A stretch of DNA of 64,000 bases from an uncultured Gammaproteobacteria bacterium (GTDB lineage Bacteria > Patescibacteriota > Patescibacteriia > UBA11705 > JABHMO01): NCBI GenBank assembly GCA_964486065.1, contig CAZAKN010000005.1, positions 60 to 64,059 of the forward strand, in the 5' to 3' direction. The first letter of the stretch is position 1. Each line of letters begins with the position of its first letter. This document shows positions 3,743 through 39,566 of this stretch, one piece after another. Made by a program: the position numbers and the translations under genes. The notes under the pieces were generated by a model. The model saw only the letters and a list, made by a program, of their open reading frames with translations. It did not search any database and was not told the origin of the DNA.

Positions 3743-4498
3743 ATGCAAATCAACAAATCCATAAAAATTATTTTACCGCTTATCGCGCTGACAATTTTGG
3801 TCGCTTTTTTCTTGAAATTTTTCTATCAAAAGAATCAGTCCGAACAAATTTTTGAAGCTCCACGAAAAGAAAAACCAGTCATTGAAGGCGAACAATTTAA
3901 AAACCGTTATTTGGAGGAAGCTATCACAGAGTATCTTCTCAGCGAAAAAAATTTCAGCTGGAAAACTAAAGAGGGAAGTCATAATCTTTGTGTAGTTGAA
4001 AATCTTGATCCGGAAAAAGAATTGTTTCCTTTATTTCTTTGGTCATATTGCGCGGAATATATCATGGAAAATCAAGAACTGAAAACAATCAGTGGTTCAT
4101 CAATCCCGATAAAACTTAATTATCCCAATGAATTATCATATTATGATATTAATAAATTTTCTCATGAAACGCCACGCGATGGAGCTGCTTATGCGGAAGA
4201 TGTTAAAACAATTTTTCCCGAAGATGTCCAAGAAAAAATATTTCAACACGATATTCGTCCTCTGATTGATAAAGCGGAAACTTACGCACTAACCAATATC
4301 ACCGATTGGAATTCCATCAAACAAGCGCTGACCGATTGCCAAGTAAAATTAATTATGCAAACACACAGCTTACATGTAACAGCTACATTAAAAAACGGAA
4401 CTACCATAAAAGCCAAGGAGCCGGCAATTGATGATATTTTTGAGCTTGTTAAAACACATGAAAAAAAATGCGGTAAAATTGAACTTGCCACTGAATAG
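3743..4498 (+). CDS. Hypothetical N-terminally membrane-anchored protein
   Basis: Long ORF with an N-terminal hydrophobic helix (IILPLIALTILVAFFLKFF). No recognisable domain. Confidence 0.35.
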   Translation: MQINKSIKIILPLIALTILVAFFLKFFYQKNQSEQIFEAPRKEKPVIEGEQFKNRYLEEAITEYLLSEKNFSWKTKEGSHNLCVVENLDPEKELFPLFLWSYCAEYIMENQELKTISGSSIPIKLNYPNELSYYDINKFSHETPRDGAAYAEDVKTIFPEDVQEKIFQHDIRPLIDKAETYALTNITDWNSIKQALTDCQVKLIMQTHSLHVTATLKNGTTIKAKEPAIDDIFELVKTHEKKCGKIELATE

Positions 4499-4537
4499 CA
4501 CACTTATAGAAATTAACAAAAAACCAATCAGCATCTT

Positions 4538-5290
4538 ATGCCCACAAGAAACATCCTATTTTATCCAAGTTTACCATGGAAATTCAGTACTATCTCCAAA
4601 ATTTTGAAAACACTTAATATTAAAATCACAAATAATCATCAACATGATTATCTGCTAGGCATACATTGGCACGACCGAACTTATACTGATTTCAACTGGC
4701 CGGAAAAAACGGAAAAACTTATCTTGAACAAAAACTGCAATAATATTTCCAAAAAACATGTTGATTTAATTCATGAAAAAATCTTGGGCTATAACAGTGA
4801 AATCAATCCTCGCGTTTATGATCGGGAATATGTCCAAAAACTTGATCTTAACGGTTTTCACTTGGGCTTTATCAGAAAACGGAAATCTCGCGCTTGGCCA
4901 CTGTTCTTTTATCAAAAAATTCCCGACAATTCAGTCGGAAATACGGTTATTGAATATCGCGTTCCCGTATTCGGCGATACCGTTCCCTTTGTTTACAAAA
5001 AAACCAAATCAATCAAAAAAAGATTAAGTTACAAAAATTTAAAAGTTGAACTGGCGTCATTTGAGGAAACCTTTAACAGTCAAGAAAGAAACTGGATTAT
5101 CGCTTTTGCCGAAGCAATGGGACTTGATTATGGAGAATTGGATATCCTACGGGACCATCCCACCAAAAAAATTTATATCATAGACGCCAACAAAACTCCT
5201 TTAACTCAGCCGAATAATTTATCAAAAAAACTGAAAAATAAAGCGATAAGTATAATGGCGGACACTTTCAAAAATGTCTTTTTGTCATAA
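4538..5290 (+). CDS. Hypothetical protein
   Basis: 250-aa ORF with no recognisable family. Followed by a terminator. Confidence 0.35.
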   Translation: MPTRNILFYPSLPWKFSTISKILKTLNIKITNNHQHDYLLGIHWHDRTYTDFNWPEKTEKLILNKNCNNISKKHVDLIHEKILGYNSEINPRVYDREYVQKLDLNGFHLGFIRKRKSRAWPLFFYQKIPDNSVGNTVIEYRVPVFGDTVPFVYKKTKSIKKRLSYKNLKVELASFEETFNSQERNWIIAFAEAMGLDYGELDILRDHPTKKIYIIDANKTPLTQPNNLSKKLKNKAISIMADTFKNVFLS

Positions 5291-5697: not shown

Positions 5698-5840
5698 TTC
5701 CTCCTAATTTAAATAAAGTGCTATTTACGGTCTATAATATTAACAAAAATAACATTTCATGTCAATTCTTTTCTTTTAAAATTATTAAAAAACTTGTAAC
5801 TTTGGTATAATTTAGGTAATAAAAAATAGATACTATTATT

Positions 5841-6215
5841 ATGAAAAAAGATATTTTAGCAGTTCTCTTGGCGGGTGCGTGGATCTCTTTATCCGAATTC
5901 CTAAGAAATGAATTGCTTTTCAAAGATTATTGGATAAATCATTACAACGCACTGGGGTTAAAATTTGAAACTTTGCCGATCAACGGACTTTTCTGGACGC
6001 TGTGGAGTTTTATTTTGGCTTATGTGGTTTACAAGCTCCTGCAAAAATTTTCCATCGGTCAAACCGTGTGGCTGACTTGGCTGGGAGCGTTTGTTCTGAT
6101 GTGGATAGCGGCTTATAATCTGCAAGTTTTTTCTTGGGGATTTTTAATTTTTGATATACCTTTAAGCTTGCTGGAACTATACCTCGCAACTTTAATCATT
6201 AAAAAATTTACATAA
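5841..6215 (+). CDS. Small integral membrane protein (hypothetical)
   Basis: 124 aa with about four predicted TM helices. Confidence 0.35.
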   Translation: MKKDILAVLLAGAWISLSEFLRNELLFKDYWINHYNALGLKFETLPINGLFWTLWSFILAYVVYKLLQKFSIGQTVWLTWLGAFVLMWIAAYNLQVFSWGFLIFDIPLSLLELYLATLIIKKFT

Positions 6216-6222
6216 TAATTTT

Positions 6223-6975
6223 ATGAAAAAATTTATTAGTCTATCCTTGGCCATTATTTTCTTACTGGCCGGTTGTTCTTTCGGAGGCTCGGAAAAAACG
6301 ATCAGCGTGTCTTTGGACAAACAAATTTATCAAGTAAATCCGGCCAATCCCAGCGCGTTCATGGAAGTTCAAGTGGAAAACAACAGCGGAAAAGAAATTT
6401 TCTATCACAGCCCGCGTCAAAAAAAATCCATTATTGCTCACCAAAAAAATGAGCAAGGTAAATGGATTGCCAAACCGGAATTGTTCACGGTTGATTTATT
6501 TTTAACCGGAGGAGACGCGAAAGTTTACACCATGAAAAACAATGAAACTAAAACTTTTAAAAAAAATTTAAGTGTAAGTGGTGAATTTAAATTGGAATTC
6601 ATTTATTACACAAGTGAAAAAGATTGCGCGAAGGAAAAAAATCAAAACAGTGTTTTCAGTCAACCGTTTATAATCGGTAACAGCGCTGATTTTGATAAGC
6701 AAACAATCATTGATACTTGCCACAGCAATTACTCAGCGACCAACCGGCGCGCCGAATGTTTATATATTGCAGCCAAGGATATTGCCATTACCGATCTACC
6801 CATTTCTCTGGATTTATGTAAGGAAATTGACAAAATGGAGCACAACTTTGATGGTTGCTACCAAGGCGTGGCTCTTGTTCTGAGTAATGCCGGATCACCT
6901 GAATTGGGTGAAAAAGTTTGTGAAAACTATCAAAATAAAGATCTTTATTCGGAGTGTCTCAATAAATTAAAATAA
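6223..6975 (+). CDS. Lipoprotein (hypothetical, Cys-rich C-terminal region)
   Basis: Signal peptide with lipobox LLAGCS. Confidence 0.45.
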   Translation: MKKFISLSLAIIFLLAGCSFGGSEKTISVSLDKQIYQVNPANPSAFMEVQVENNSGKEIFYHSPRQKKSIIAHQKNEQGKWIAKPELFTVDLFLTGGDAKVYTMKNNETKTFKKNLSVSGEFKLEFIYYTSEKDCAKEKNQNSVFSQPFIIGNSADFDKQTIIDTCHSNYSATNRRAECLYIAAKDIAITDLPISLDLCKEIDKMEHNFDGCYQGVALVLSNAGSPELGEKVCENYQNKDLYSECLNKLK

Positions 6976-15815: not shown

Positions 15816-16086
15816 ATTTATTTGTTTATTTATATTATTTAAATATATATATTAATTAATAATAATAATAAGTCTGTGGATGAAGTGGAAAACTATATGT
15901 TTTGCCATGATAAAAGGTTAAGATTCCTTTGCGGATAAGTATGTTTAAAACATTTTTAAAAGATGTGCGTAAGGTGACGAAAAAGAGGATAAGTTTTAAA
16001 GGATGGGTTATGCACAGTTTTTAGAGGATCTTTTCAACATATTTATAAAAGTTTTTCAGGCTTTTATCTACAGAATATACTCAAGA
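15816..16086. promoter_or_regulatory. Candidate oriC segment (dnaA-dnaN intergenic): AT-rich unwinding-element-like tract plus at least four DnaA-box-like 9-mers
   Basis: Five DnaA-box-like 9-mers: TGTGGATGA at 15875-15883; TTATCCGCA (reverse complement) at 15930-15938; TTATCCTC-type (reverse complement) at 15986-15994; TTATGCACA at 16008-16016; TTATCTACA at 16064-16072. Four of the five differ from the TTATCCACA consensus at one position; the box at 15986-15994 has two mismatches. The AT-only run 15836-15870 could act as an unwinding element. Confidence 0.55.
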
Positions 16087-17463: not shown

Positions 17464-17749
17464 AAGTTTTTGCTTTTTATTTTTAAGATGATTGTAAATT
17501 TTGACTTTTGTATTTTAGCAATTATTGGAATTGTGGACAAGTAACGGAGAATTACACACTTTTTAAAACGCTTGTTGATAGCTTGTTGATAAAAAACATA
17601 TTGCAAAAAAAATAAAACAATATCTAAGTTTTTAAAACATGATTTTAAGCAAGACAAGATTATTGGTTTACGGTTGACAAAAATTTTCAATTTCTGTATT
17701 ATCTACTCATATTATTTTTTAATTAAGCGAAAAATTTACCATAAGCAGT
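17464..17749. promoter_or_regulatory. Second candidate oriC segment / dnaA upstream region with DnaA-box-like motifs and the rpmH promoter
   Basis: TGTGGACAA at 17532-17540. Direct repeat cttgttgata with TGTTGATAG at 17574-17582 and TGTTGATAA at 17585-17593. Rich in A-tracts. Confidence 0.4.
17674..17702 (+). promoter_or_regulatory. Near-consensus sigma70 promoter for rpmH (TTGACA-17nt-TATTAT)
   Basis: TTGACA at 17674-17679, exactly 17-nt spacer, TATTAT at 17697-17702, about 47 nt upstream of the rpmH ATG. Confidence 0.55.
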
Positions 17750-17896
17750 ATGCCGAAAAGAACTTATCAACCGAATACTCGGAAAAAATTGAAAAAACAC
17801 GGTTTTAGAAATAGAATGAGCGATAAAAACGGTCGCCAAGTTTTGAAAAGAAGACGAGATAAAGGGCGCGCCAGCTTGAGTTCATCAGATAGATAA
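17750..17896 (+). CDS. rpmH: 50S ribosomal protein L34
   Basis: Translation [48 protein letters not shown] (48 aa) matches the highly conserved L34. Absent from the ORF track because it is under 60 aa. Confidence 0.9.
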
Positions 17897-18055
17897 ATTT
17901 CAATATATAAAATCACTCGTTTTTCCGAGTGGTTTTTTATTTGTGTTTGACAAAGATTGTCAAAAATTGTAATTGAACAAAGGGGATTGACAAGAGATCG
18001 CGGATGTGTTTAAATAAATTAATCCTTTATTGCTTAACAAAACAAGGAGTGAACC

Positions 18056-18226
18056 ATGGAAAGGGAAAAAAATCAAAAAAGGAAAAAGCGTCGCTATTAT
18101 ACTCCTCTGGCGGAAATAAAACGACAAATGTTTCTTGATAGTTGGCTTGGACCGGGAACTTACGATGACTTCATGAAAAACCGCAGAGATGAGGATGAGC
18201 CGAAAGAAAAACAAGATGAAAATTAA
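18056..18226 (+). CDS. Small highly basic hypothetical protein (56 aa)
   Basis: Strong SD AAGGAGTGAACC before the ATG at 18056. Translation MEREKNQKRKKRRYYTPLAEIKRQMFLDSWLGPGTYDDFMKNRRDEDEPKEKQDEN. Not in the ORF track (under 60 aa). Followed by a terminator. Confidence 0.35.
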   Translation: MEREKNQKRKKRRYYTPLAEIKRQMFLDSWLGPGTYDDFMKNRRDEDEPKEKQDEN

Positions 18227-18278
18227 TTTTGCCACAAACACGGCGTGGATTTTTCCGCATAATCTTTTTGATAAATAC

Positions 18279-18310
18279 TGATTGGACTTTTCCAATCAGT
18301 TTTTTGTTTT
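18279..18310 (+). terminator. Rho-independent terminator (ctgattgga ... tccaatcag + T-run)
   Basis: 9-bp perfect inverted repeat followed by TTTTTTGTTTTT. Confidence 0.6.
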
Positions 18311-18360
18311 TAATAATTGTTTAAATAAGCTATAATTTAATAAAATTAATACTAGATATT

Positions 18361-20925
18361 ATGGAAAAAAAATTAAAGCTTTCTTCTGAAGAAATTGTGG
18401 AGTCTTCCATTAGTGATAAATTTAAAAGCAGAGAAAATCCCACCGATCAATTTGATCAAAATTTTATTTTGAAGAAAAAACAAGAAAAAGGTGAAGATCT
18501 GGAAAAGAAAGTCAATCAAATGGCAAGTGGATCATATCAAGCGGAGCATGATGAAATGAAAAACGCTGAATTTGTAAACCTGCCGGCTTGTCAAACATTC
18601 ATGGAAAAGTTTTTCAAAGAATCCGATAAAAGAGGGATAGATACTTTAACCGGTTTATATAATCGTTTACAGCTTTTTGACAAAGGAATTGATTTAATTG
18701 AAAGAATTGAATCAGGGAAAGAAAAAGAAAAAAGTATCTCGGTTATCAGTTTGGATATAGATTTTTTTAAAGCATATAATGAAATATCCCATACTTTTGG
18801 TGATTTGGCTTTACAAACAGTGGGTGAAACAATCAATGATTTTAATCAAGAAAAAGGTGGGGGTTTCGGTGTCCGTTTGGGAGGAGAAGAAATTTTTCTT
18901 TTGGTTGAAGGGGGGATGACTTATGATGAAGCTTCCGAACATGCTGAAGAATTGAAAAATCGGGTAAAAGAATCTTTGCAAAAGCTATTTCGTAGCGTGG
19001 ATGAACATCAAGGCGTATCCGATAAAACCGTTAAATTCATGGAAGAAAAAATTCTTACCGAAGATAGAAACCAAAAAAGTTTTAACGAAGAAATGGCGGA
19101 AAAGCCTCACTATCAAAAATTCAAAAACGAATTGGTAGCTTTGATGGAGAATGAGAAATACTTAGGCCAAGTTCCCGGCTTTAATTTAAAGTCGTCTCCG
19201 GCGGAATTGGTTTTTTCAGTTAATCAGGCAATTGAAAGCGTGGAAAATCCGGAAGTGAAAAAAAATTTACAAAATATCAAAGATATACTGCAAATTGAAT
19301 TGGGCACGGTAACCGTGGGAATGGCTTATGTGGAGTTTCCCGAAGAAGCCGAATTATTGCCCGAACAAGAGAGACAAGAATACTTGGATCAATTAAATAA
19401 AATTTTGGAAAATTATCCGGATGTTTATAATTTGATAGTCGTAAAAACAAAAGACGCTTCAGTTAATGATTTTTCAAAAAGTGTTTATAAGCTTATAAAA
19501 GATATTTCTGAAGATATAGTAAAGGAAAAAGCGGTTGATTACATCAGAAAAATCAATTTTGCCAGATTCGGCACGATCGTGGATCAAGCCAATAAGCTTG
19601 AAGAAGATCAGAAAAAACAAAAACGAAATTCCGTATCGGCAAAGAAGTTTCATTTTGAACAATTGAAGTCGCGAGAAATAACGGATGAAAATATCGTGGA
19701 AAGCTATGAAGATGTTTTGGATAAGGTCCAAACACTATTGGCGCAAAGATTACAAACGGCAAAACAAAAGCAAGAACCGCTATTTAATGATAACTTGGCG
19801 GATAGTTTTTTGTCGGGATTGGAAGAGGGAGGAAAAAAATTTAGAGATGATTTTTATGAAGAATTGATAATTTTGCAAAAAGATAAATATATTGAACCTT
19901 TGACTTTGGCTAAAAATTATAATTATTTGGCACAAGTAGTCCCGGAAGAAATGGAAAAAGTCAGACAAGAAAAGCATGATTACGCCATGGTTTCTTTTGA
20001 TGTTGATAATTTAAAAGCGGTTAATGATACTTGGGGGCATAAATTGGGAGATGTGGTGTTGATGAATATCAGCGGGGTCATGCAGGAAGAAATGGAAAAA
20101 TTATTAAATCCTTCTGAAGGACAAGATGATCCTTATAACGGTTTGGGAGAAAAAATAAAAAAAACGGGGATTGAACCGTCTGTGATTCGCGCGACCGGAG
20201 GAGAAGAATTTGTGGCTACTTTTCCCGGTTTGTCCGGATCCGAGTCACGCTTTGTTTTCCAACAAATGAACGAGAAATTAAAAAAAGAAATTTTGAAAAT
20301 CGTGGATCAGCCCGCGGAAACAGCTTCTTTGACTGGTTCGGAAAAAGATAAAGGTATAGAAGGGAAAAAATATCAAACTTATAAAGAAGGGATACAAGAA
20401 TTTATCGCCGGTTTAGATCTAACTTTGGCGGATGGTGAAACCAAGGTGAAAAGAAGCCAAGAAGAAATGACTCAATTCGGTTCGGTTACCGCCGGGATCG
20501 TGGCGCTAAGCGACTTACACGAATTGAGCGATGAAGGTCATATTGAAGAAAGGAATTATTTGCGTGAAGACGGGAAAATTAACGCCGGTAAGATCAGACA
20601 ATTGGCTGATAATATAGGCGAAGAAGCTAAAAAAGATATTCATTACAAAACAGAAATTAATGAAAAGGGAGAGCGTGTTTTGGTAGGAGATTCCGGGCGT
20701 GGCACGGTGGAGGGAGTTGATTATTTTATGAAACAATCCTCTTTGCGGGCTTTGGAACAAAAAGTCAAAGAATTGGGACATGAAAACAAAATTTTGCTTT
20801 CGGAAAAAGAAAAATTAAGTGAAGAATTGCGAAAATTGCGAGCGCTTTTGAAAAACAGACAATATGAGGAAAAGCATGAAGAACAATTACAAAATATTCG
20901 CGGTAGAATAAAAGAAATCGGATAA
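18361..20925 (+). CDS. Tandem GGDEF-domain protein (putative diguanylate cyclase) with C-terminal coiled coil
   Basis: GGDEF domain 1 has LTGLYNR ... DIDFFKAYNE..FGD ... RLGGEEIF (variant GGEEI). GGDEF domain 2 has FDVDNLKAVNDTWGHKLGD ... RATGGEEFVATF (intact GGEEF). The C-terminus is a heptad-rich coiled coil. Confidence 0.7.
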   Translation: MEKKLKLSSEEIVESSISDKFKSRENPTDQFDQNFILKKKQEKGEDLEKKVNQMASGSYQAEHDEMKNAEFVNLPACQTFMEKFFKESDKRGIDTLTGLYNRLQLFDKGIDLIERIESGKEKEKSISVISLDIDFFKAYNEISHTFGDLALQTVGETINDFNQEKGGGFGVRLGGEEIFLLVEGGMTYDEASEHAEELKNRVKESLQKLFRSVDEHQGVSDKTVKFMEEKILTEDRNQKSFNEEMAEKPHYQKFKNELVALMENEKYLGQVPGFNLKSSPAELVFSVNQAIESVENPEVKKNLQNIKDILQIELGTVTVGMAYVEFPEEAELLPEQERQEYLDQLNKILENYPDVYNLIVVKTKDASVNDFSKSVYKLIKDISEDIVKEKAVDYIRKINFARFGTIVDQANKLEEDQKKQKRNSVSAKKFHFEQLKSREITDENIVESYEDVLDKVQTLLAQRLQTAKQKQEPLFNDNLADSFLSGLEEGGKKFRDDFYEELIILQKDKYIEPLTLAKNYNYLAQVVPEEMEKVRQEKHDYAMVSFDVDNLKAVNDTWGHKLGDVVLMNISGVMQEEMEKLLNPSEGQDDPYNGLGEKIKKTGIEPSVIRATGGEEFVATFPGLSGSESRFVFQQMNEKLKKEILKIVDQPAETASLTGSEKDKGIEGKKYQTYKEGIQEFIAGLDLTLADGETKVKRSQEEMTQFGSVTAGIVALSDLHELSDEGHIEERNYLREDGKINAGKIRQLADNIGEEAKKDIHYKTEINEKGERVLVGDSGRGTVEGVDYFMKQSSLRALEQKVKELGHENKILLSEKEKLSEELRKLRALLKNRQYEEKHEEQLQNIRGRIKEIG

Positions 20926-20927
20926 TT

Positions 20928-21284
20928 ATGTTAAAAAGAATCAATCGCATTGGCAAGCAAAAAGACTTTGATCAATTTTTCGGTCAAAGCTTTAAAAAAC
21001 ATCGCGGACGCAATGCATCTTCGCGTTTTGCCATTTTGAAAACATATTTGAACGGACGGGATTATCCTCGTGTCACTTTCATTATTTCCAATAAAATTGA
21101 TAAAAGAGCCACAGCCAGAAACGCTATGAAAAGACAGTTTCGAGAAATCGTGCGAAAAAATTTGCCCGATATTAAAGAAAATTGTGATATGCTGTTTATA
21201 GCCAAGCCAGCCGCGAAAACCGCTTCTGTTCAAGCATTGCGCGATGATTTGCTCGGGTTGATGAAAAAAGCGGGAATTATATGA
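20928..21284 (+). CDS. rnpA: Ribonuclease P protein component
   Basis: 118 aa, basic, matching the RnpA pattern. In the conserved rpmH-rnpA-yidD gene order. Confidence 0.8.
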
Positions 21285-21544
21285 TTTTGAAAACTGTACA
21301 AAATTATACGGCTTTGATTGCCATGAAAGTGATTCGTCTTTATCAAAAACATTTATCATTTGATCATAGTCCACTCGGGAAAATATTTTTTCCGCACGGA
21401 TATTGTCGTTATAATCCCAGTTGTTCGGAGTATACATATCAAGCCATAAAAAAATACGGATTTTTTAAGGGAGCGACAATGGGAGTTTGGCGTATATTGC
21501 GTTGCAATCCATGGAGTAAAGGAGGTAATGATCCGGTCAAATAA
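21281..21544 (+). CDS. yidD: Membrane protein insertion efficiency factor YidD
   Basis: YidD/haemolytic-domain signature with conserved Cys pairs ([18 protein letters not shown]). Overlaps the rnpA stop (translational coupling). Confidence 0.8.
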
Positions 21545-28132: not shown

Positions 28133-29482
28133 ATGAAAGATTTAATAAAAAATTTTGAATTATTTGCCAGATTTGTTGATATTACGCAAAATTTGGTTTT
28201 TTATATTGATTCAAACAAAAAAATTCTTTACACGAATTCTATAGCGGATAGATGGCTGTTTGAACATAATATGGCCAATGCCAATGGTATTTTCAAGGTT
28301 TTGCCTGATAATATTCAAGAAATAATTCAAGAGCATTTAAAGGAAGAAAAAATATATAGAAATGTTTTGGGATATGAGGATGAATATTTCAAAATTCAAT
28401 TAACTCCGCTCAAAGACAAAGACGCGGTTTTTATAACTTTGACTGATATTACAGATACTCAAAAAATCAGTTTGGAAAACGAAATTTTCAACACGGCTTT
28501 TGAAAGTTCCTTGCAAGGCATGATGATTACCGATGTTTTGGGAACCATTGTTTACGCCAATAAAGCCTTGTCGGAAATGTATGGTTATGAAAAAAGTGAA
28601 TTGATCGGTCAAACTCCCAATATTTTAAATCCCGGAGTTGATGTGTATGAAGCGCAAGGGATTTCCAAAGAAGAATATCGTCATATATTTGAAAATATGT
28701 GGGATGACTTGAGAGATGAAAGTTTGGGGTCTTGGGAAGGTGAAGTCGTAAACAAAAAGAAAAACGGTGAATTGGTTTGGGTCAGTTTGTTTACCAGCGC
28801 CATCCGCAACAAAAGGGGCGAAATTATCGCTTATTTGGGTATGCCGGTGGATATTTCGGCTCGTCGTTTCAGAGAACATAGTATTCGTTTGGAATGTTAT
28901 AATGCTTTGACTCATATGGCGGAACAAAAAGATTTGGCCAATCGCGGACATTTGAAAACTATCGGTAAATTCGCGCGACTTTTGGCGGAAGAAATGAAAA
29001 TGCCCAAACAATTTTGTGAAGACATTGAGGTTTTCTCTTCTTTGCATGATATTGGTAAAGTTGGATTGGACAATAAGATTTTGGCCAAAGGCCATGAATT
29101 GCAAGGTGAAGAATTGGATCATTATAAAGAGCACACCAAGGTTGGTTATGAAATATTGCGTGGAGTTTCCACTTTGGAGATGGCCGCCGAGATTGCTCTT
29201 TCTCATCACGAACGCTGGGACGGACAAGGTTATCCGCATGGATTACGCGGAGAAGAAATTCCTTTATCCGCGCGAATTGTCGCTCTGGCGGATATGTATG
29301 ATACTTTACGCGCGCGACGCGAGTACAAAGACGCGTTGCCTCATGATCAAGCCGTGGAAATGATTATTGAAGAAAAAGGAGGCTATTTAAGTCCGGCAGT
29401 GGTGGAGGCTTTTGAAAGAATCGCGGATCAGTTCCGCAGTGTTTATCGGCGCGCCAATAAAAAGCTGGAAAATGGACGATAA
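28133..29482 (+). CDS. PAS-domain / HD-GYP-domain protein (putative c-di-GMP phosphodiesterase)
   Basis: PAS segment SLQGMMITDVLGTIVYANKALSEMYGYEKSELIGQ. HD-GYP motifs HDIGKVGL ... HHERWDGQGYPHGL. Confidence 0.75.
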   Translation: MKDLIKNFELFARFVDITQNLVFYIDSNKKILYTNSIADRWLFEHNMANANGIFKVLPDNIQEIIQEHLKEEKIYRNVLGYEDEYFKIQLTPLKDKDAVFITLTDITDTQKISLENEIFNTAFESSLQGMMITDVLGTIVYANKALSEMYGYEKSELIGQTPNILNPGVDVYEAQGISKEEYRHIFENMWDDLRDESLGSWEGEVVNKKKNGELVWVSLFTSAIRNKRGEIIAYLGMPVDISARRFREHSIRLECYNALTHMAEQKDLANRGHLKTIGKFARLLAEEMKMPKQFCEDIEVFSSLHDIGKVGLDNKILAKGHELQGEELDHYKEHTKVGYEILRGVSTLEMAAEIALSHHERWDGQGYPHGLRGEEIPLSARIVALADMYDTLRARREYKDALPHDQAVEMIIEEKGGYLSPAVVEAFERIADQFRSVYRRANKKLENGR

Positions 29483-34192: not shown

Positions 34193-35617
34193 ATGTTTAA
34201 AAAAGCCGGAACAATTAAAATATTATTGACTTTGCTTTTGGCTTTTGTTTTTTTAACCGGCGCCAGTTGTACCAAAGGGGGTGATTCTTCCGCTCGTGAT
34301 GCTTATCGTCCCGTGACTATTACCTATTGGCGAGTTTGGGACAATGAAGATGATTTATTGGAATTGATGAATGCTTATCGCGCCTTGCATCCCAATGTTA
34401 GTTTTGAATATCGTAAATTGCGTTATGAAGAATATGAAGATGAGTTACTGAACGCTTTGGCGGAAGATCGCGGTCCGGATATTTTTTCCGTGCATAATAC
34501 TTGGATGGAAAGACATAAAGCAAAAATCCTGCCTATGCCTTCACAGGTTCGCACACCGGTTAAATTTATGTCGGGCACGGTGAAAAAAGAAGAAGTTTAT
34601 GAATTTCGCGCCAGACGCGGTTATTCACCAAGTGAAATGAGAAAAAGTTTTTTGGATGTGGTTTACGATGACGCGGTTATGCCTTACAATTCTGGCACGG
34701 CGGATAAACCGGTTTATCAAGATGTTGTTTGGGGAGTTCCTTTGGCATTGGATAACTTGGTATTATATTACAATCGCGATATTTTAAATACCGCCGGAGT
34801 GATTGAGCCGGCCAAGAACTGGACGGAATTTCAAGAGCATGTAAAAAGAATGACTAGAATTGACGGAAATTCGGGAGATATTTTGGTGGCGGGGGCGGCT
34901 ATCGGAACAGGTGAAAATGTAGCGCGCAGTTTTGACATTCTTTCATTGCTTATGATGCAAAATCAAGCGATCATGATTAATGATAATGATGATGTTGTTT
35001 TCAATCGCATGCCGGGCGCTTTATCCGAGCAATTGGAAGTGCCACCCGGCAGAGGGGCTTTGGAATATTATCTTCAGTTTGCTTCACCGCTCAGCGAGGC
35101 TTACACTTGGAATGAAAATATGCCTGATTCTTTGGAAGCTTTTATGGCCGGACGAGTGGGATATTTTTTCGGGTATGCTTATCACAAGGAATTCATTGAC
35201 GCTCAGGCACCACAACTTGATTATGAAATAGCGCCAATGCCTCAAGTTTCTGCCAATCAAAAAGTTAATTATGCCAATTATTGGCTTGAAACGGTTTCCA
35301 ATAAAACCGAAGTTGTTGATTACGCTTGGGATTTTCTGTTGTTTGCCACTTCGCCGGAAAATATTGAAAAATATTTGGATAAAGTCAAGAAACCCACGGC
35401 TTTGCGTTCTACGGAAATTATCAATAAACAATTGCAAGACCCCGTGTTAACGGTTTTTGCCGATCAATTGTTGACTTCTCGAAGTTGGTATCACGGAGCA
35501 AATTCCGCTGAAGCGGAACAGGCCTTCAATGAAATGATAAAAGTGACTTTGCAAGGAGAGTTAACTCCGGAGAGAGCTATGCTTAACGCTGTGGATAAAA
35601 TTGAAAGTACTAGATAA
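34193..35617 (+). CDS. Extracellular solute-binding lipoprotein (ABC transporter family-1 SBP, probable sugar/oligosaccharide)
   Basis: Lipobox LTGASC. Length and motifs typical of SBP_bac_1. No permease or ATPase partner genes adjacent. Confidence 0.65.
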   Translation: MFKKAGTIKILLTLLLAFVFLTGASCTKGGDSSARDAYRPVTITYWRVWDNEDDLLELMNAYRALHPNVSFEYRKLRYEEYEDELLNALAEDRGPDIFSVHNTWMERHKAKILPMPSQVRTPVKFMSGTVKKEEVYEFRARRGYSPSEMRKSFLDVVYDDAVMPYNSGTADKPVYQDVVWGVPLALDNLVLYYNRDILNTAGVIEPAKNWTEFQEHVKRMTRIDGNSGDILVAGAAIGTGENVARSFDILSLLMMQNQAIMINDNDDVVFNRMPGALSEQLEVPPGRGALEYYLQFASPLSEAYTWNENMPDSLEAFMAGRVGYFFGYAYHKEFIDAQAPQLDYEIAPMPQVSANQKVNYANYWLETVSNKTEVVDYAWDFLLFATSPENIEKYLDKVKKPTALRSTEIINKQLQDPVLTVFADQLLTSRSWYHGANSAEAEQAFNEMIKVTLQGELTPERAMLNAVDKIESTR

Positions 35618-36035
35618 TATGTTTAAAAAGTTTTTAATAATTATCTTGATTTGCAGTTGGTTATTGCCTTTCGGCGCAATGGCAAAAGAAACATCGGGCA
35701 ATAATTGTCAATTTGCCAATGATTGGAGCTTGTTGCCCGTAAAGTGCACGCAATCAACTTACAGTGAGGCGATAGAATGCGGTTTGGAGGAATTGCAATG
35801 CACTTTGATTCGTTTTGCCACCATAATTTTACGCTTGGCCGGGTCAGCCGCGCTCTTAATGTTTGTTATCGGAGGAATAATGTATATTCTTTCCGGCGGG
35901 GATCAGGGAAAAGTCCAGAAAGCTACCGGTTTTTTGAAATACGCGACCATAGGTTTGGCCATGATATTATTATCAGGCTTTTTTATCAGAGTTCTTTTGG
36001 AAGTTTTAACCAATAAAGGAGTATCATATAATTAA
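35601..36035 (+). CDS. VirB2/TrbC-like (T4SS-pilin-like) small secreted two-TM protein, paralog 1
   Basis: Signal peptide, Cys-containing ectodomain, then a TM1-GG..(K/Q)..A-TM2 core (AALLMFVIGGIMYILSGGDQGKVQKATGFLKYATIGLAMILLS). Confidence 0.5.
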   Translation: MKVLDNMFKKFLIIILICSWLLPFGAMAKETSGNNCQFANDWSLLPVKCTQSTYSEAIECGLEELQCTLIRFATIILRLAGSAALLMFVIGGIMYILSGGDQGKVQKATGFLKYATIGLAMILLSGFFIRVLLEVLTNKGVSYN

Positions 36036-36036
36036 T

Positions 36037-36471
36037 ATGAAATATAAGATTCTTTGTTGTGTAGTAATATTATTAAGTGTTTTTTTCTTGAGCTTGGATT
36101 TTTCTTTTGCTAAAGATTCGGCGGAAGCTAAAGATTCGGCGGAAGCTAAAGCGATTAAAGAAATTAGTAACTTGCAAAGAGATCTTGGTTTGACACTTGG
36201 CCATAATACCAATATTACCATAGGCAATTTTATCAAAGCTTTTTGGGGAATATTGGGATCAATTTCTTTGGCTGTTTTTTTGTATGGTGGTATAATGTGG
36301 ATGATCTCAGAAGGGGATGATACCAAAATAACCAAAGCCAAAAAGACCATGATTTGGGCGGCTTTGGGCTTGTTGGTTATGTTTACTTCTTATGTGATCA
36401 TTGAATTTTTAATAGATACATTGGGGAAACAGGATATTGGTTTTCACTATATTTCCAAATATATTATTTAA
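36037..36471 (+). CDS. VirB2/TrbC-like pilin-like protein, paralog 2 (contains AKDSAE tandem repeat)
   Basis: Core LAVFLYGGIMWMISEGDDTKITKAKKTMIWAALGLLVMF. An 18-bp tandem duplication gctaaagattcggcggaa x2 encodes AKDSAEAKDSAE. Confidence 0.5.
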   Translation: MKYKILCCVVILLSVFFLSLDFSFAKDSAEAKDSAEAKAIKEISNLQRDLGLTLGHNTNITIGNFIKAFWGILGSISLAVFLYGGIMWMISEGDDTKITKAKKTMIWAALGLLVMFTSYVIIEFLIDTLGKQDIGFHYISKYII

Positions 36472-36501
36472 TATTTAATTTAATAATTAATCATTAAAGC
36501 C

Positions 36502-36888
36502 ATGATTAACATTACAAAAGTAAAAGTGGTGGCCAAAGTCGCTTTTATGGTTTTTCTGCTTTTCGCGGTAGCTATGCCGGCCTTTGCTCAATTAGATTTG
36601 GGATTGGGAGAAGTAGGAGAAGCTACGGAGCTTGGAGATACGGATATTCGTACAACAGTGGGATCCATTATCAATGCTGCTTTGGGCTTCTTGGGCGTTG
36701 TCGCGGTGGTCATTGTTTTGATCGGTGGGTTTAAGTATATGATTGCCGGTGGCAGTGAAGACAAAGTGGCTGAAGCGAAAAAATGGATTATTTCCGGAAT
36801 TATCGGTTTGGCCATTATCTTGAGCGCTTATGCGATCACTACATTTGTAGTTGGCGAGTTGATTTCAGCAACTACGGGAGTAGAATAA
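36502..36888 (+). CDS. VirB2/TrbC-like pilin-like protein, paralog 3
   Basis: Core VVIVLIGGFKYMIAGGSEDKVAEAKKWIISGIIGLAIILSAYAITTFV. Confidence 0.5.
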   Translation: MINITKVKVVAKVAFMVFLLFAVAMPAFAQLDLGLGEVGEATELGDTDIRTTVGSIINAALGFLGVVAVVIVLIGGFKYMIAGGSEDKVAEAKKWIISGIIGLAIILSAYAITTFVVGELISATTGVE

Positions 36889-36900
36889 TCTTCTTAAATA

Positions 36901-36925
36901 AGGGAGGGCTTCGGCCCTCCCGGAG
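36901..36925. terminator. GC-rich hairpin (gggagggc ttcg gccctccc) inside the pilin-like array; possible terminator or processing site
   Basis: 8-bp perfect GC stem with tetraloop. The downstream U-tract is weak. Confidence 0.35.
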
Positions 36926-36965
36926 CTCCTATTTCATTCAGCCATTAGATAATTAGTTTAGTTAT

Positions 36966-37427
36966 TTGATGATTGTTATGAAAAAGAAACTATCTTTATT
37001 GAGTTTTTGCATACTTGTTTTCTTAATGATGGTTTTTGGTTCCATGCCCGCAATGGCGGACAATTATTTGCAACAGGGTTTGGATTATACGGCGAAGCAG
37101 GCGACTTTGATGGATGATTCAGTGGAGGCAGGAGGGGGAAAACAGATTAGTGAAAGAATCGGTTATTGGTTGGGAAGAGTTATGTCTTTTATTGGTATTT
37201 TGTTTTTGGTTTTAATTTTATATGGCGGACTTATGTGGCTAATCAGTCGTGGCGATAAAACTAAAATAGCCAATGCTAAAAGCATTATAATTGATGCCAC
37301 GATCGGTCTTTTGATCACCATGTCCGCTTATGCTATTGTTAACGGTTTATTTGATGTTTTTAAAAATAATAATTTAGGTGAAACTGTTGGAAAAGCAAAT
37401 GTGGAAAATAATAAGAAAATGGTATGA
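36966..37427 (+). CDS. VirB2/TrbC-like pilin-like protein, paralog 4
   Basis: Core LVLILYGGLMWLISRGDKTKIANAKSIIIDATIGLLITMSAYAIV. Confidence 0.5.
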   Translation: MMIVMKKKLSLLSFCILVFLMMVFGSMPAMADNYLQQGLDYTAKQATLMDDSVEAGGGKQISERIGYWLGRVMSFIGILFLVLILYGGLMWLISRGDKTKIANAKSIIIDATIGLLITMSAYAIVNGLFDVFKNNNLGETVGKANVENNKKMV

Positions 37428-37840
37428 AAAAAGTAAAAAAAATTTATCAAATATCATTATTGGCAATATTTTTATTTTCATTTCTTTTGCCTTTGCAAAG
37501 TGTAATGGCTCAGGGAGATAGCGCACAGGAAATGGCTGACCAGGGATTGCAAGTATCTGCCGGCAAAGCCGGATTGACCGCAGCGCCGGTGGAACAAATA
37601 GTGGGAAATATTATTGGTTATATGTTAAGTTTTATAGGCTTGGTTTTGCTTGTAATGATTGTTTACGGTGGTATTTTGTGGTTGACGGCCGGCGGCAAAT
37701 CTGACCAATTGGAAAAAGCCAAATCGGTTTTGGCTAATGCGGTTATCGGTTTGGCTATAGTTTTGTTGGCCTATAGTTTTACTTTCTATGTTACTTCTCG
37801 TTTTACCGCAGCCACTCAAACTACAGAACAAACTCCTTAA
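37424..37840 (+). CDS. VirB2/TrbC-like pilin-like protein, paralog 5
   Basis: Core MIVYGGILWLTAGGKSDQLEKAKSVLANAVIGLAIVLLAYSF. Its start overlaps the previous stop (ATGA). Confidence 0.5.
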   Translation: MKKVKKIYQISLLAIFLFSFLLPLQSVMAQGDSAQEMADQGLQVSAGKAGLTAAPVEQIVGNIIGYMLSFIGLVLLVMIVYGGILWLTAGGKSDQLEKAKSVLANAVIGLAIVLLAYSFTFYVTSRFTAATQTTEQTP

Positions 37841-37848
37841 TTATACCT

Positions 37849-38259
37849 ATGAAATATTTAATTAATTCAAAAGTAAAAAGTTTTACAGTTATTATTGCGA
37901 TTTTTTGTATTTTACTATTAGGTTTTGGATCTGTTGTATCAGCGCAAGATCCGCAAAGTAAACTGCAAGGAGCGTATAAAGCATCATTTGGTCAAGAATT
38001 GAATGATCCGGAAAACCTTTTCACTCAGCAAGTCGGTGGTATTATTAGGATTATTTTAGCTACAGTGGGTACGGTGTTTGTGGTTGTTTTAGTTTACGCG
38101 GGATATTTGTGGTTAACGGCCGGTGGTAATGATACGCAACTGGCCAAGGCGAAAAGTTTAATGATCAATGGAGTCATTGGTTTGGCCATAACTTTGGCCG
38201 CGTATTTGATTTCCGATTATGTCTTTATTCGTTTGGTGGCGTCCACGGTCGGAGGATAA
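37849..38259 (+). CDS. VirB2/TrbC-like pilin-like protein, paralog 6
   Basis: Core VLVYAGYLWLTAGGNDTQLAKAKSLMINGVIGLAITLAAYLISDYV. Confidence 0.5.
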   Translation: MKYLINSKVKSFTVIIAIFCILLLGFGSVVSAQDPQSKLQGAYKASFGQELNDPENLFTQQVGGIIRIILATVGTVFVVVLVYAGYLWLTAGGNDTQLAKAKSLMINGVIGLAITLAAYLISDYVFIRLVASTVGG

Positions 38260-38261
38260 AT

Positions 38262-38711
38262 ATGAAAATGAAAAAAATAATATTTATTTTAATTATTATC
38301 ATGTTGGTCGTGCCGTTTTTTTCACAAGCGGCGGGAACTTTTGATCCGAAAGGAGATTTAGCGCAAGCTGAAAAGGGACTTTATCAAGGCGCTCAGCCCA
38401 CTTCTTTACCGGTATATATCGGGATGATTATCAGATATGTTTTGGGGACTGTGGGAGTTGTTTTAACCGTAATTATCGTTTATGCAGGATTTTTATGGCT
38501 GACGGCCGGTGGTAATTCAGACCAAGTCGGAAAAGCTAAAAAATTATTAATTAACGGTTTTGTCGGGTTATTGATTACTTTGGGGGCGAATTCAATAGCA
38601 CATTTTGTTATTGACAGATTAACTGATAATTCGCAACCAAATGAATGGGTGGAAATAGGTGAACAACCATATAAACCTTTAAGCGAACAAGTAAGAGACG
38701 GAGATTTATGA
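38262..38711 (+). CDS. VirB2/TrbC-like pilin-like protein, paralog 7
   Basis: Core IIVYAGFLWLTAGGNSDQVGKAKKLLINGFVGLLITLGANSIAHFV. Confidence 0.5.
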   Translation: MKMKKIIFILIIIMLVVPFFSQAAGTFDPKGDLAQAEKGLYQGAQPTSLPVYIGMIIRYVLGTVGVVLTVIIVYAGFLWLTAGGNSDQVGKAKKLLINGFVGLLITLGANSIAHFVIDRLTDNSQPNEWVEIGEQPYKPLSEQVRDGDL

Positions 38712-39115
38712 AAAAGATATTATTAATTTTTTTAATTGTCAGCATATTGTTTTCATTAAAAATTGTCCCTGCGGAGGCTAAGAGTGGGCAAGACTTTGTT
38801 AATGATTTACGACAGGGTTCGGAAAATGTGGGTGCCAAGGGGTTCGGAGAAACCGGTGGAAGTAGCCAGTTGACATATAGAATCGGTACTTGGATTCAAA
38901 TAGTCTTGGGTACTTTGGGTATAATTGTGGTGGTAATTATCCTTTACGCCGGCTTTTTATGGATGACCGCCGGAGGCAATACCGATCAAGTCGGGAAAGC
39001 TAAAAGCTTATTGATCAACGGAGCAATAGGATTGCTTATAGCCATTAGTGCGTATGCCATAACGGATTTTGTTCTGGATAGGTTTGTGGAAGACGCTCAA
39101 GTTCAAGAGCGTTGA
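38708..39115 (+). CDS. VirB2/TrbC-like pilin-like protein, paralog 8
   Basis: Core IILYAGFLWMTAGGNTDQVGKAKSLLINGAIGLLIAISAYAITDFV. Confidence 0.5.
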   Translation: MKKILLIFLIVSILFSLKIVPAEAKSGQDFVNDLRQGSENVGAKGFGETGGSSQLTYRIGTWIQIVLGTLGIIVVVIILYAGFLWMTAGGNTDQVGKAKSLLINGAIGLLIAISAYAITDFVLDRFVEDAQVQER

Positions 39116-39164
39116 TTGAAATATTAAATATTTGCTATAATATTTTTAATAATAATTAAAAAGA

Positions 39165-39566
39165 TTGCGTTTTATGAAAAATATTTTTATTGTTTTGGCC
39201 ATGCTGTTCTTGGTTTTGTTCAGCGCCAACGCGGTTTTCGCTATCAGCGATGATGTCGCCAGGGAAATAAGAGGAGGAGCCGATACTATCGGTAATGTGG
39301 GATTTGGAGAGTCAAGTGGTGAAGGAGAATTATTGTCAAACAGAATCGGCGGAATAATTAAAGCGGCTTTGGGCTTGGTGGGTGTTATCGTAGTGGTGAT
39401 AATTGTTTACGCCGGCTTTTTATGGATGACCGCCGGAGGCAATACCGATCAAGTTGGGAAAGCCAAAAGCTGGTTGATTAACGGTGTTATCGGTTTGGTT
39501 TTGGTTTTAAGCGCTTACGCTATCACGGATTTTGTTATCAGCAGATTGATTGAAGCATCCGCATAA
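39165..39566 (+). CDS. VirB2/TrbC-like pilin-like protein, paralog 9
   Basis: Core IIVYAGFLWMTAGGNTDQVGKAKSWLINGVIGLVLVLSAYAITDFV. Shares a 48-nt identical DNA stretch with paralog 8. Confidence 0.5.
   Translation: MRFMKNIFIVLAMLFLVLFSANAVFAISDDVAREIRGGADTIGNVGFGESSGEGELLSNRIGGIIKAALGLVGVIVVVIIVYAGFLWMTAGGNTDQVGKAKSWLINGVIGLVLVLSAYAITDFVISRLIEASA

Follow-up and report, generated by a model that had tools for sequence, protein, structure and literature searches.

A tandem-GGDEF gene upstream of rnpA as a lineage-limited variant of c-di-GMP signalling in Patescibacteria

The surroundings of the replication origin in a genome of the candidate phyla radiation (CPR; Patescibacteria), represented here by a 64-kb stretch of contig CAZAKN010000005.1 (hereafter the window; ~37% GC), contain a gene for an 854-residue protein with two GGDEF domains, inserted between rpmH and rnpA. 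This tandem-GGDEF gene ahead of rnpA is a real, recurring and lineage-limited variant of ordinary cyclic di-GMP (c-di-GMP) signalling, seen in a single small clade of Falkowbacteria-like, ultra-small cells, and comparison of loci supports its description as a conserved, clade-specific operon partner of rnpA. Annotation-level mentions of diguanylate cyclase genes in ultra-small Patescibacteria exist already (PMC9938205), and for CPR bacteria c-di-GMP signalling is therefore not new per se. Three things limit the importance of the present case: GGDEF genes of CPR bacteria have annotations already, the family has very few members, and there is no demonstration of unusual chemistry. The locus illustrates that the highly conserved origin-side rpmH-rnpA junction can be rewired, placing the essential rnpA behind the promoter of a signalling gene, and it suggests that c-di-GMP signalling in some CPR/Patescibacteria lineages has been pared down, with the sensor residing on the degrading enzyme, a PAS/HD-GYP protein.

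Synthesis of c-di-GMP by a diguanylate cyclase requires two GGDEF domains, each loaded with GTP, to come together in an antiparallel arrangement, and this meeting is normally set by sensor-driven dimerisation. In the explanation favoured here, to which we give about an even chance, the window encodes a constitutive, single-chain, pseudo-dimeric diguanylate cyclase that lacks product inhibition and is opposed by the PAS/HD-GYP enzyme. The tandem-GGDEF gene, rnpA and yidD would make up an operon whose promoter lies immediately ahead of the GGDEF gene, and the two GGDEF halves of the chain would form an intramolecular pseudo-dimer that synthesises c-di-GMP with no need for a signal to bring about dimerisation. 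The amount made would then depend chiefly on expression, coupled to that of rnpA beside the origin, and signal input would sit on degradation, through the sensory PAS/HD-GYP enzyme encoded 7 kb downstream.

Gene order around rnpA

The gap between rpmH and rnpA in the window measures 3,031 nt and contains two terminator-like hairpins, so that the two genes are not contiguous. An initial reading of the sequence alone (the sequence-only reading) had placed them about 3 kb apart, had noticed a terminator between them and had called the interruption unusual; profile matches (Table 1), the measured gap and both hairpins bear out the spacing and the terminator, and related loci bear out the rarity. 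In a metagenome scan seeded with rnpA, which yielded 28 related loci, an rpmH match lies immediately upstream of rnpA in ~22 of the 28 (20 distinct contigs), some of them close relatives without the insert, and the six gaps measured span 22-141 nt. Comparison of these loci shows the GGDEF-bearing order to be the derived one, with a predicted ancestor in which rpmH and rnpA were contiguous.

The tandem-GGDEF gene is found directly upstream of rnpA, or of rnpA-yidD, in seven lineages drawn from different samples and assemblers, the window counting as one: the window itself (with the near-identical contig L010), L001/L002, L003, L007/L008, L011, L094 and L095/L103. In these loci rpmH lies upstream at a variable distance, with a DUF1653 gene, small minus-strand genes and GC-rich non-coding stretches in between. 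The insert occupies the same place in seven lineages and in independent assemblies, which excludes mis-assembly: an artefact of assembly or of binning, which the metagenome-type source and the frameshift-ridden long-read contig L010 might have suggested, is refuted by the same order in L010 (an independent European Nucleotide Archive, ENA, contig), by exact copies of the protein in NCBI and Logan assemblies and by the six further lineages. Comparing the synteny of relatives, which the sequence-only reading had proposed as the check that could expose an artefact, has therefore settled that matter in favour of a genuine insertion.

Single-gene neighbour-joining trees give an indication of how the arrangement arose. 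All GGDEF-bearing loci fall in one clade of the DnaA tree (DnaA at least 69% identical to that of the window), which also holds the insert-free loci L097, L099 and L105; all outgroups are insert-free. The GGDEF tree is star-like and retains one grouping of the DnaA tree, L095 with (L001, L003). The simplest history, which these trees can only indicate, would be a single insertion between rpmH and rnpA in the ancestor of the clade, after which the gene diverged rapidly and was lost or moved several times.

The family is small by every search made. A word-indexed search of 5.8 billion protein clusters retrieved seven full-length relatives, to which a profile added none, and scores fell from 939 bits directly to 72 bits, where generic GGDEF proteins start. 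An exhaustive hidden Markov model (HMM) search of 1.84 billion representatives gave 23 proteins at E <= 1e-30, about a dozen of them close members. A more distant set (P0048-P0057), 20-25% identical, shares the tandem GGDEF domains and long insertions, the domain 1 signature being GGEE[L/M/I] and that of domain 2 mostly GGEEF. Scanning contigs with the family alignment returned mostly generic GGDEF genes and, among the matches listed, one true member, on the 2.4-kb contig L012. The nearest named relative is annotated in a Candidatus Falkowbacteria metagenome-assembled genome. Judged from these sequences, which amount to about 20 clusters among the 1.84 billion representatives, the tandem-GGDEF architecture with insertions is rare and lineage-specific.

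The intact 854-residue reading frame is present in both the NCBI and the Logan assemblies. The half-length proteins P0044, P0045 and P0054 appear to be gene calls cut short, not ancestral forms with one domain. In contig L010 (ENA ERZ1757541 contig_8233), 99% identical and from the same organism, dnaA, dnaN, a cytidylate kinase gene, rnpA (83 aa) and the tandem-GGDEF gene are all split or shortened. Their state is consistent with apparent frameshifts of the kind usual in long-read assemblies, which account for the 528-aa "representative" P0001.

In the canonical rpmH-rnpA-yidD(-yidC) cluster, as in the window, dnaA diverges from rpmH, rnpA overlaps yidD and the putative origin is adjacent. The window differs in that rpmH is closed off by its own terminator, in that rnpA-yidD is preceded by a 2.6-kb signalling gene that has a promoter to itself, and in that yidD is followed by a gene for a Wzx-like flippase instead of yidC. 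The gap between the GGDEF gene and rnpA is 2 nt in the window, 3 nt in L011, 15 nt in L095 and 21 nt in L094. The start of the 854-codon frame has no Shine-Dalgarno (SD) sequence, and every orthologue examined likewise shows a TATAAT-like box and an A/T-rich leader without an SD ahead of the GGDEF gene. Terminators, gaps and boxes thus point to three units, namely rpmH, a small open reading frame (ORF) and GGDEF-rnpA-yidD; the tandem-GGDEF gene, with its 2-nt gap and putative own promoter, is tightly linked to rnpA rather than to rpmH, and we infer that GGDEF, rnpA and yidD are co-transcribed.

The small ORF between the two hairpins is probably a real gene, as its codon usage (0.37 bits/codon against a mean of 0.38 for the window's real genes, with 0 out-of-frame windows that high) and the rarity of comparable frames in shuffled sequence both indicate: an ATG-initiated ORF of at least 40 codons preceded by an SD core arose in 64 of 5,000 shuffles of the spacer. 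The sequence-only reading described a basic 56-aa protein with a strong ribosome-binding site; the AAGGAG site and coding character stand, and the description as basic is half true, as the N-terminal half is basic and the C-terminal half acidic (pI 9.0; 15 K/R against 13 D/E). The protein is already present in NCBI-derived protein sets, gives zero Pfam or NCBIfam matches and retrieved only itself among 5.8 billion clustered proteins. A second promoter-like sequence, TTGACA-17-TTAAAT, begins at 17987, past TTGACAAAGATTGTCAA. The 17-mers TTGACAAAAATTTTCAA (17674-17690, at the -35 element of rpmH) and TTGACAAAGATTGTCAA are alike and both near-palindromic, and the promoter region of the small ORF looks like a copy of the rpmH promoter, unless both have one operator in common.

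Small ORFs of 38-76 codons also lie shortly upstream of the cyclase gene in most relatives, namely L001 (7165-7308), L003 (3794-3925), L007 (2492-2608), L093 (947-1072) and L011 (2951-3181), with a strong GGAGG/AAGGAG site in four of the five, the exception being L011. Aligned homology exists only within the pairs L001/L003 and L007/L093 and never extends to the window ORF, and for this reason a single small-ORF family is not accepted; across the relatives compared, the position of the upstream ORF is kept and its sequence is not. A leader-peptide or attenuator role was also set aside, because at every locus the GGDEF gene has its own TATAAT box past the terminator and the small-ORF sequences are unconserved. 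PADLOC returned no defence-system match for either the small ORF or the tandem-GGDEF protein, and an Rfam scan of the spacer and the whole window found no riboswitch and no known RNA except tRNAs.

Other elements occupy the same spacer in relatives. Just upstream of the small ORF and tandem-GGDEF gene, L001 (6604-7167) and L003 (3209-3796) share ~600 nt that are 74% identical and 47% GC in AT-rich genomes. Mismatches by codon position number 67/71/67, with 21 gap openings and no favoured frame. The stretch has no Rfam match and is not present in the window; it has the look of a conserved element outside coding sequence, possibly a structured RNA. In L005, where the tandem-GGDEF gene (P0007) lies between rpmH and an unrelated gene, an HD_4 gene (4143-4646; Pfam PF13328) stands between rpmH and the GGDEF gene. 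We take HD_4 to be a RelA/SpoT-type (p)ppGpp-hydrolase-like HD domain, which would make it another nucleotide-messenger enzyme in the rpmH spacer.

Domains and active sites of the tandem-GGDEF protein

The two GGDEF domains of the 854-aa protein, already proposed in the sequence-only reading, are each recovered by curated profiles: PF00990 (1.9e-29; 102.9 bits against a cut-off of 23.8) and TIGR00254 (116 bits against 37.4) both match in two separate stretches. A Pfam scan found no domain besides GGDEF, and thus no sensor, membrane or receiver domain, and no transmembrane segment was predicted anywhere in the protein (maximum KD19 1.06). An AlphaFold2 model built on the 23-sequence family alignment has a mean predicted local distance difference test score (pLDDT) of 81.5 and a predicted template modelling score (pTM) of 0.73. 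Read together with the alignment, it begins with a poorly ordered N-terminal part that includes a single conserved helix. Domain 1 follows, led in by a helix and a DxLT turn; three linker helices come next, then domain 2, led in by a helix and an (E/D)xLT turn, and last a C-terminal helix. Each GGDEF domain is therefore preceded by its own stalk-like helix.

Both domains contain large insertions that are specific to the family. Those of domain 1 are helical, at ~208-311 (after the helix that follows the GGEEI hairpin) and ~327-400 (past the next core strand). In domain 2 an alpha/beta insertion occupies ~650-705 and a beta-hairpin 761-777, the latter between the AK helix and the GRx motif. Taken alone, the domain 1 half matches solved cyclases by sequence (8c05, WspR and PleD), as does the domain 2 half (SiaD, DgcR and WspR). 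Foldseek relates the model with probability 1.0 to DgcB, SiaD, DgcZ, WspR and PleD; all 50 of the PDB matches listed are GGDEF-domain proteins, each aligned at the level of a single domain, with a best query-normalised TM-score of 0.18. The C-terminal coiled coil claimed in the sequence-only reading is real in the window protein, where the modelled helix 786-853 carries a heptad pattern, and it recurs in P0005, P0007 and P0043. It is missing from P0003, P0006, P0040 and P0041 and hence is not a defining feature of the family.

Conservation was assessed across 12 close family members, 29-39% identical to the window protein. Positions invariant or at least 90% conserved are D132, D134, K137, N140, D148, R172, G174-G175-E176-E177-I178, K418 and R422 in domain 1, and D547, D549, K552, N555, D564 (at least 90%), R610, G614-E615-E616-F617, K757 and R780 in domain 2. 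These positions coincide almost exactly with the catalytic set: alignment to PleD and WspR identifies them as the metal-binding Asp residues, the catalytic Lys, the guanine-specifying Asn/Asp, the signature EE and the phosphate-binding Lys/Arg, for which we take the PleD counterparts to be D327, K332, N335, D344, E370/E371, K442 and R446. In the alignment, the catalytic residues of domain 1 are as conserved as those of domain 2, and both domains look catalytically competent.

The signature motifs are as the sequence-only reading gave them, a GGEEI variant in domain 1 (residues 174-178) and an intact RATGGEEF in domain 2 (610-617), the latter invariant in the family. The fifth residue of the domain 1 signature is invariably Ile in the close family and I/L/M in distant members. 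The DgcP protein of Bacillus subtilis, counted among the three diguanylate cyclases of that organism, is described with a GGEEL motif (PMC5422440), and an aliphatic fifth residue is thus compatible with activity. DgcP resembles domain 1 in having an aliphatic residue for Phe in the signature, and differs in being a single GGDEF domain joined to a GAF sensor, in an unrelated lineage and context.

The suggestion of an I-site-like R..D context did not survive inspection. The RxxD I-site is absent from both domains, the positions -9 to -6 reading KGGG in domain 1 and IEPS in domain 2, and the family alignment has no conserved RxxD at the inhibitory position. The sole R..D motifs in the protein are RGID at 91-94, in the DxLT turn, and RSVD at 211-214. 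The Hypr signature, in which Ser replaces the guanine-specifying Asp, is not present in either domain.

Each half of the window protein thus resembles the GGDEF domains of PleD, WspR, DgcB, SiaD and DgcR, which provide its best sequence and structure matches, in fold, in catalytic and substrate residues and in the helix and DxLT-type turn ahead of the domain. Unlike PleD/WspR-type cyclases, which have one GGDEF domain per chain and regulated homodimerisation, it has two per chain; it lacks Rec, PAS, GAF or membrane input and the RxxD I-site; and it contains insertions of ~65-100 residues in each domain, with a domain 1 signature of GGEE[I/L/M].

Mechanism and alternatives

The intramolecular pseudo-dimer is proposed because both domains keep the full set of catalytic and substrate residues; with neither domain possessing RxxD, output could be set mainly by expression and by HD-GYP degradation. 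That the dimer is intramolecular, that its product is c-di-GMP and that the HD-GYP enzyme is its functional partner are inferences that go beyond the sequence itself. Should the fused domains cooperate, signal-controlled dimerisation would be dispensable, and the protein would lend itself well to studies of the encounter complex in catalysis.

The proposed opposing enzyme was named in the sequence-only reading as a PAS/HD-GYP phosphodiesterase, and HD profiles together with the LHDIGK and HHERWDGQGYP motifs confirm the assignment of this gene, 7 kb from the GGDEF gene. It is likely the phosphodiesterase counterpart of the tandem-GGDEF protein. The window contains exactly one GGDEF-family gene and one HD-GYP gene, and the minimal c-di-GMP circuit put forward in the sequence-only reading is plausible. 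Of the two PAS domains of this enzyme, the second has weak LOV/YtvA-type matches, reads GQTPNILNPG and lacks the flavin-binding NCRFLQ cysteine; it is probably not a blue-light sensor.

Several observations weigh against the favoured explanation. Pfam found no c-di-GMP receptor domain (PilZ or other) among the 20 otherwise unassigned proteins of the window, no PilZ or MshEN motifs occur in its real genes, and Rfam detected no c-di-GMP riboswitch in it; this search covers 64 kb of a roughly 1-Mb genome and amounts to absence of evidence there. Domain 1 is one residue shorter in the N(D/E)xxGH loop and its GGEEI deviates from the canonical signature, while domain 2 has NY where NR is usual after the DxLT-type turn and a GRx motif displaced by the hairpin inserted before it, and each of these could impair catalysis or change specificity. 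The C-terminal coiled coil of the window protein suggests homo-oligomerisation, which would allow catalysis between two copies of domain 2. In addition, four members (P0006, P0040, P0046 and P0048) are located away from rnpA, and linkage to rnpA is therefore not obligatory.

The strongest alternative, less probable than the intramolecular dimer and still of real weight, is that domain 2 alone is catalytic and homodimerises through the C-terminal coiled coil and/or the stalk helices, domain 1 being a pseudo-enzyme that binds GTP or acts allosterically, as is the case in certain GGDEF-EAL proteins. It would fit the canonical GGEEF and NDTWGHKLGD of domain 2 beside the GGEEI and one-residue loop deletion of domain 1, the long heptad helix of the four coiled-coil proteins, and the distant P0048 and P0049, in which domain 1 lacks the guanine-binding Asp (GHDFGN) and, in P0049, also the Lys. 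However, the catalytic and substrate positions of domain 1 are all invariant in 12 close members at ~35% identity, which one would not expect if the domain did no more than bind a ligand; four members lack the coiled coil; and GGEEL is found in an active cyclase (DgcP, PMC5422440).

A bolder possibility, which we consider unlikely, is an obligately asymmetric single-chain GGDEF cyclase, a counterpart of the Cas10 or C1/C2 type, whose product or kinetics would be unavailable to homodimers (for instance a dinucleotide that is mixed or linear, or c-di-GMP made constitutively and without regulation), with expression hard-wired to the RNase P protein and to origin-proximal dosage and with the upstream small ORF as a possible partner. 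In Cas10 (Palm1/Palm2) and in class III adenylyl cyclases (C1/C2), two homologous cyclase-type palm domains occupy one chain, each with its own deviations and with helical inserts between them. The resemblance to the window protein lies in this two-palm single-chain layout and is one of analogy only: one domain is usually catalytically degenerate in those enzymes, whereas the window protein keeps both sets of residues, and no Cas10 or adenylyl-cyclase chain appears among the 50 PDB matches listed by Foldseek, and similarity in both sequence and Foldseek comparisons stops at the single GGDEF domain. If this possibility is true, the synthesis of a second messenger in a symbiont of reduced genome would report on its growth and replication.

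Conceivably, though rather improbably, the asymmetric half-sites make a product other than c-di-GMP, such as a mixed cyclic dinucleotide, for example 3'3'-cyclic GMP-AMP (3'3'-cGAMP), or a linear pppGpG-type product, on which the HD-GYP enzyme would act. Some GGDEF enzymes (Hypr) produce cGAMP and some HD-GYP enzymes degrade it, and the two domains have complementary, family-invariant deviations, the short guanine-pocket loop being confined to domain 1 and NY for NR to domain 2. Against this, the guanine-specifying Asn/Asp are kept in both domains (N140/D148 and N555/D564), the Ser-for-Asp replacement typical of Hypr enzymes is not seen, and no data point to the use of ATP.

It is more improbable still that the protein is a degenerate, non-enzymatic GGDEF scaffold or receptor, kept only because rnpA depends on its promoter. 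The lack of a c-di-GMP receptor or riboswitch in the window, the very fast divergence outside the motifs and the loss of the gene from the rpmH-rnpA spacer in the close relatives L097, L099 and L105 would agree with such a role. Yet the catalytic motifs are invariant in both domains while the rest diverges, which is a signature of selection on catalysis; moreover, the protein lacks an I-site through which c-di-GMP could bind, and an HD-GYP enzyme is encoded nearby.

Origin neighbourhood and further features

The cumulative GC skew changes direction at ~16 kb of the window, where a cluster of DnaA-box-like 9-mers marks the probable oriC (Table 1); further such 9-mers lie at 17532 and 17584.

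Table 1. Coordinates of the features discussed, numbered from the first position of the window
Feature	Position	Strand	Description
Cluster of four DnaA-box-like 9-mers (probable oriC)	15875..16072		dnaN-dnaA spacer, at GC-skew minimum
dnaA	16087..17463	minus	Pfam Bac_DnaA, 2e-69; diverges from rpmH
rpmH promoter-like site	17674..17702	plus	TTGACA-17-TATTAT (11/12 match); -35 inside near-palindrome TTGACAAAAATTTTCAA
rpmH (ribosomal protein L34)	17750..17896	plus	Pfam PF00468 Ribosomal_L34, 9.6e-21
Terminator-like hairpin after rpmH	17909..17936	plus	11 pairs and T-run
Near-palindrome TTGACAAAGATTGTCAA	17947..17963	plus	Resembles rpmH -35 region; upstream of small ORF
Orphan 56-codon ORF	18056..18226	plus	AAGGAG ribosome-binding site 7 nt before ATG; coding-like codon usage
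Terminator-like hairpin after small ORF	18277..18300	plus	10 pairs and T-run
TATAAT -10-like hexamer	18331..18336	plus	24 nt before GGDEF start codon
Tandem-GGDEF protein, 854 aa	18361..20925	plus	PF00990 and TIGR00254, two stretches each
GGDEF domain 1	18637..19653	plus	Residues 93-431; DIDFFKAYN...GD...RLGGEEI...K418...R422
GGDEF domain 2	19891..20715	plus	Residues 511-785; DVDNLKAVNDTWGHKLGD...RATGGEEF...K757...R780
C-terminal single long helix	20716..20922	plus	Residues 786-853 (68 residues), coiled-coil-like
rnpA (RNase P protein)	20928..21284	plus	Pfam Ribonuclease_P, 3.2e-19; starts 2 nt past GGDEF stop codon
yidD	21281..21544	plus	Pfam, 7.4e-26; 4-nt overlap with rnpA
PAS-PAS/HD-GYP protein	28133..29482	plus	PF13487 (HD_5) 5e-32, PF01966 (HD) 9e-17; LHDIGK, HHERWDGQGYP

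A functional tie between the tandem-GGDEF gene and the Wzx/GT4/Wzy polysaccharide genes downstream of yidD was rejected as not specific, because this cluster also follows yidD in the GGDEF-less loci L098 and L105, and probably in L096 and L104. In L007, which carries the GGDEF-rnpA-yidD operon, a gene for a cNMP_binding-domain protein (5830-6318, minus strand) comes right after yidD. Farther along the window, positions 35601-39566 hold an array of ~8 paralogous membrane proteins of 130-150 aa with the common motif ...LWLTAGGN.DQ..KAK... and a pilin or VirB2-like look. The segment 42142-47058 encodes a PKD and 7TM_transglut membrane protein, an ATPgrasp_ST domain fused to a Zn_protease/aspartyl-protease-like C-terminus and two RimK-like ATP-grasp enzymes, a cluster that looks like a peptide-ligase or modification module.

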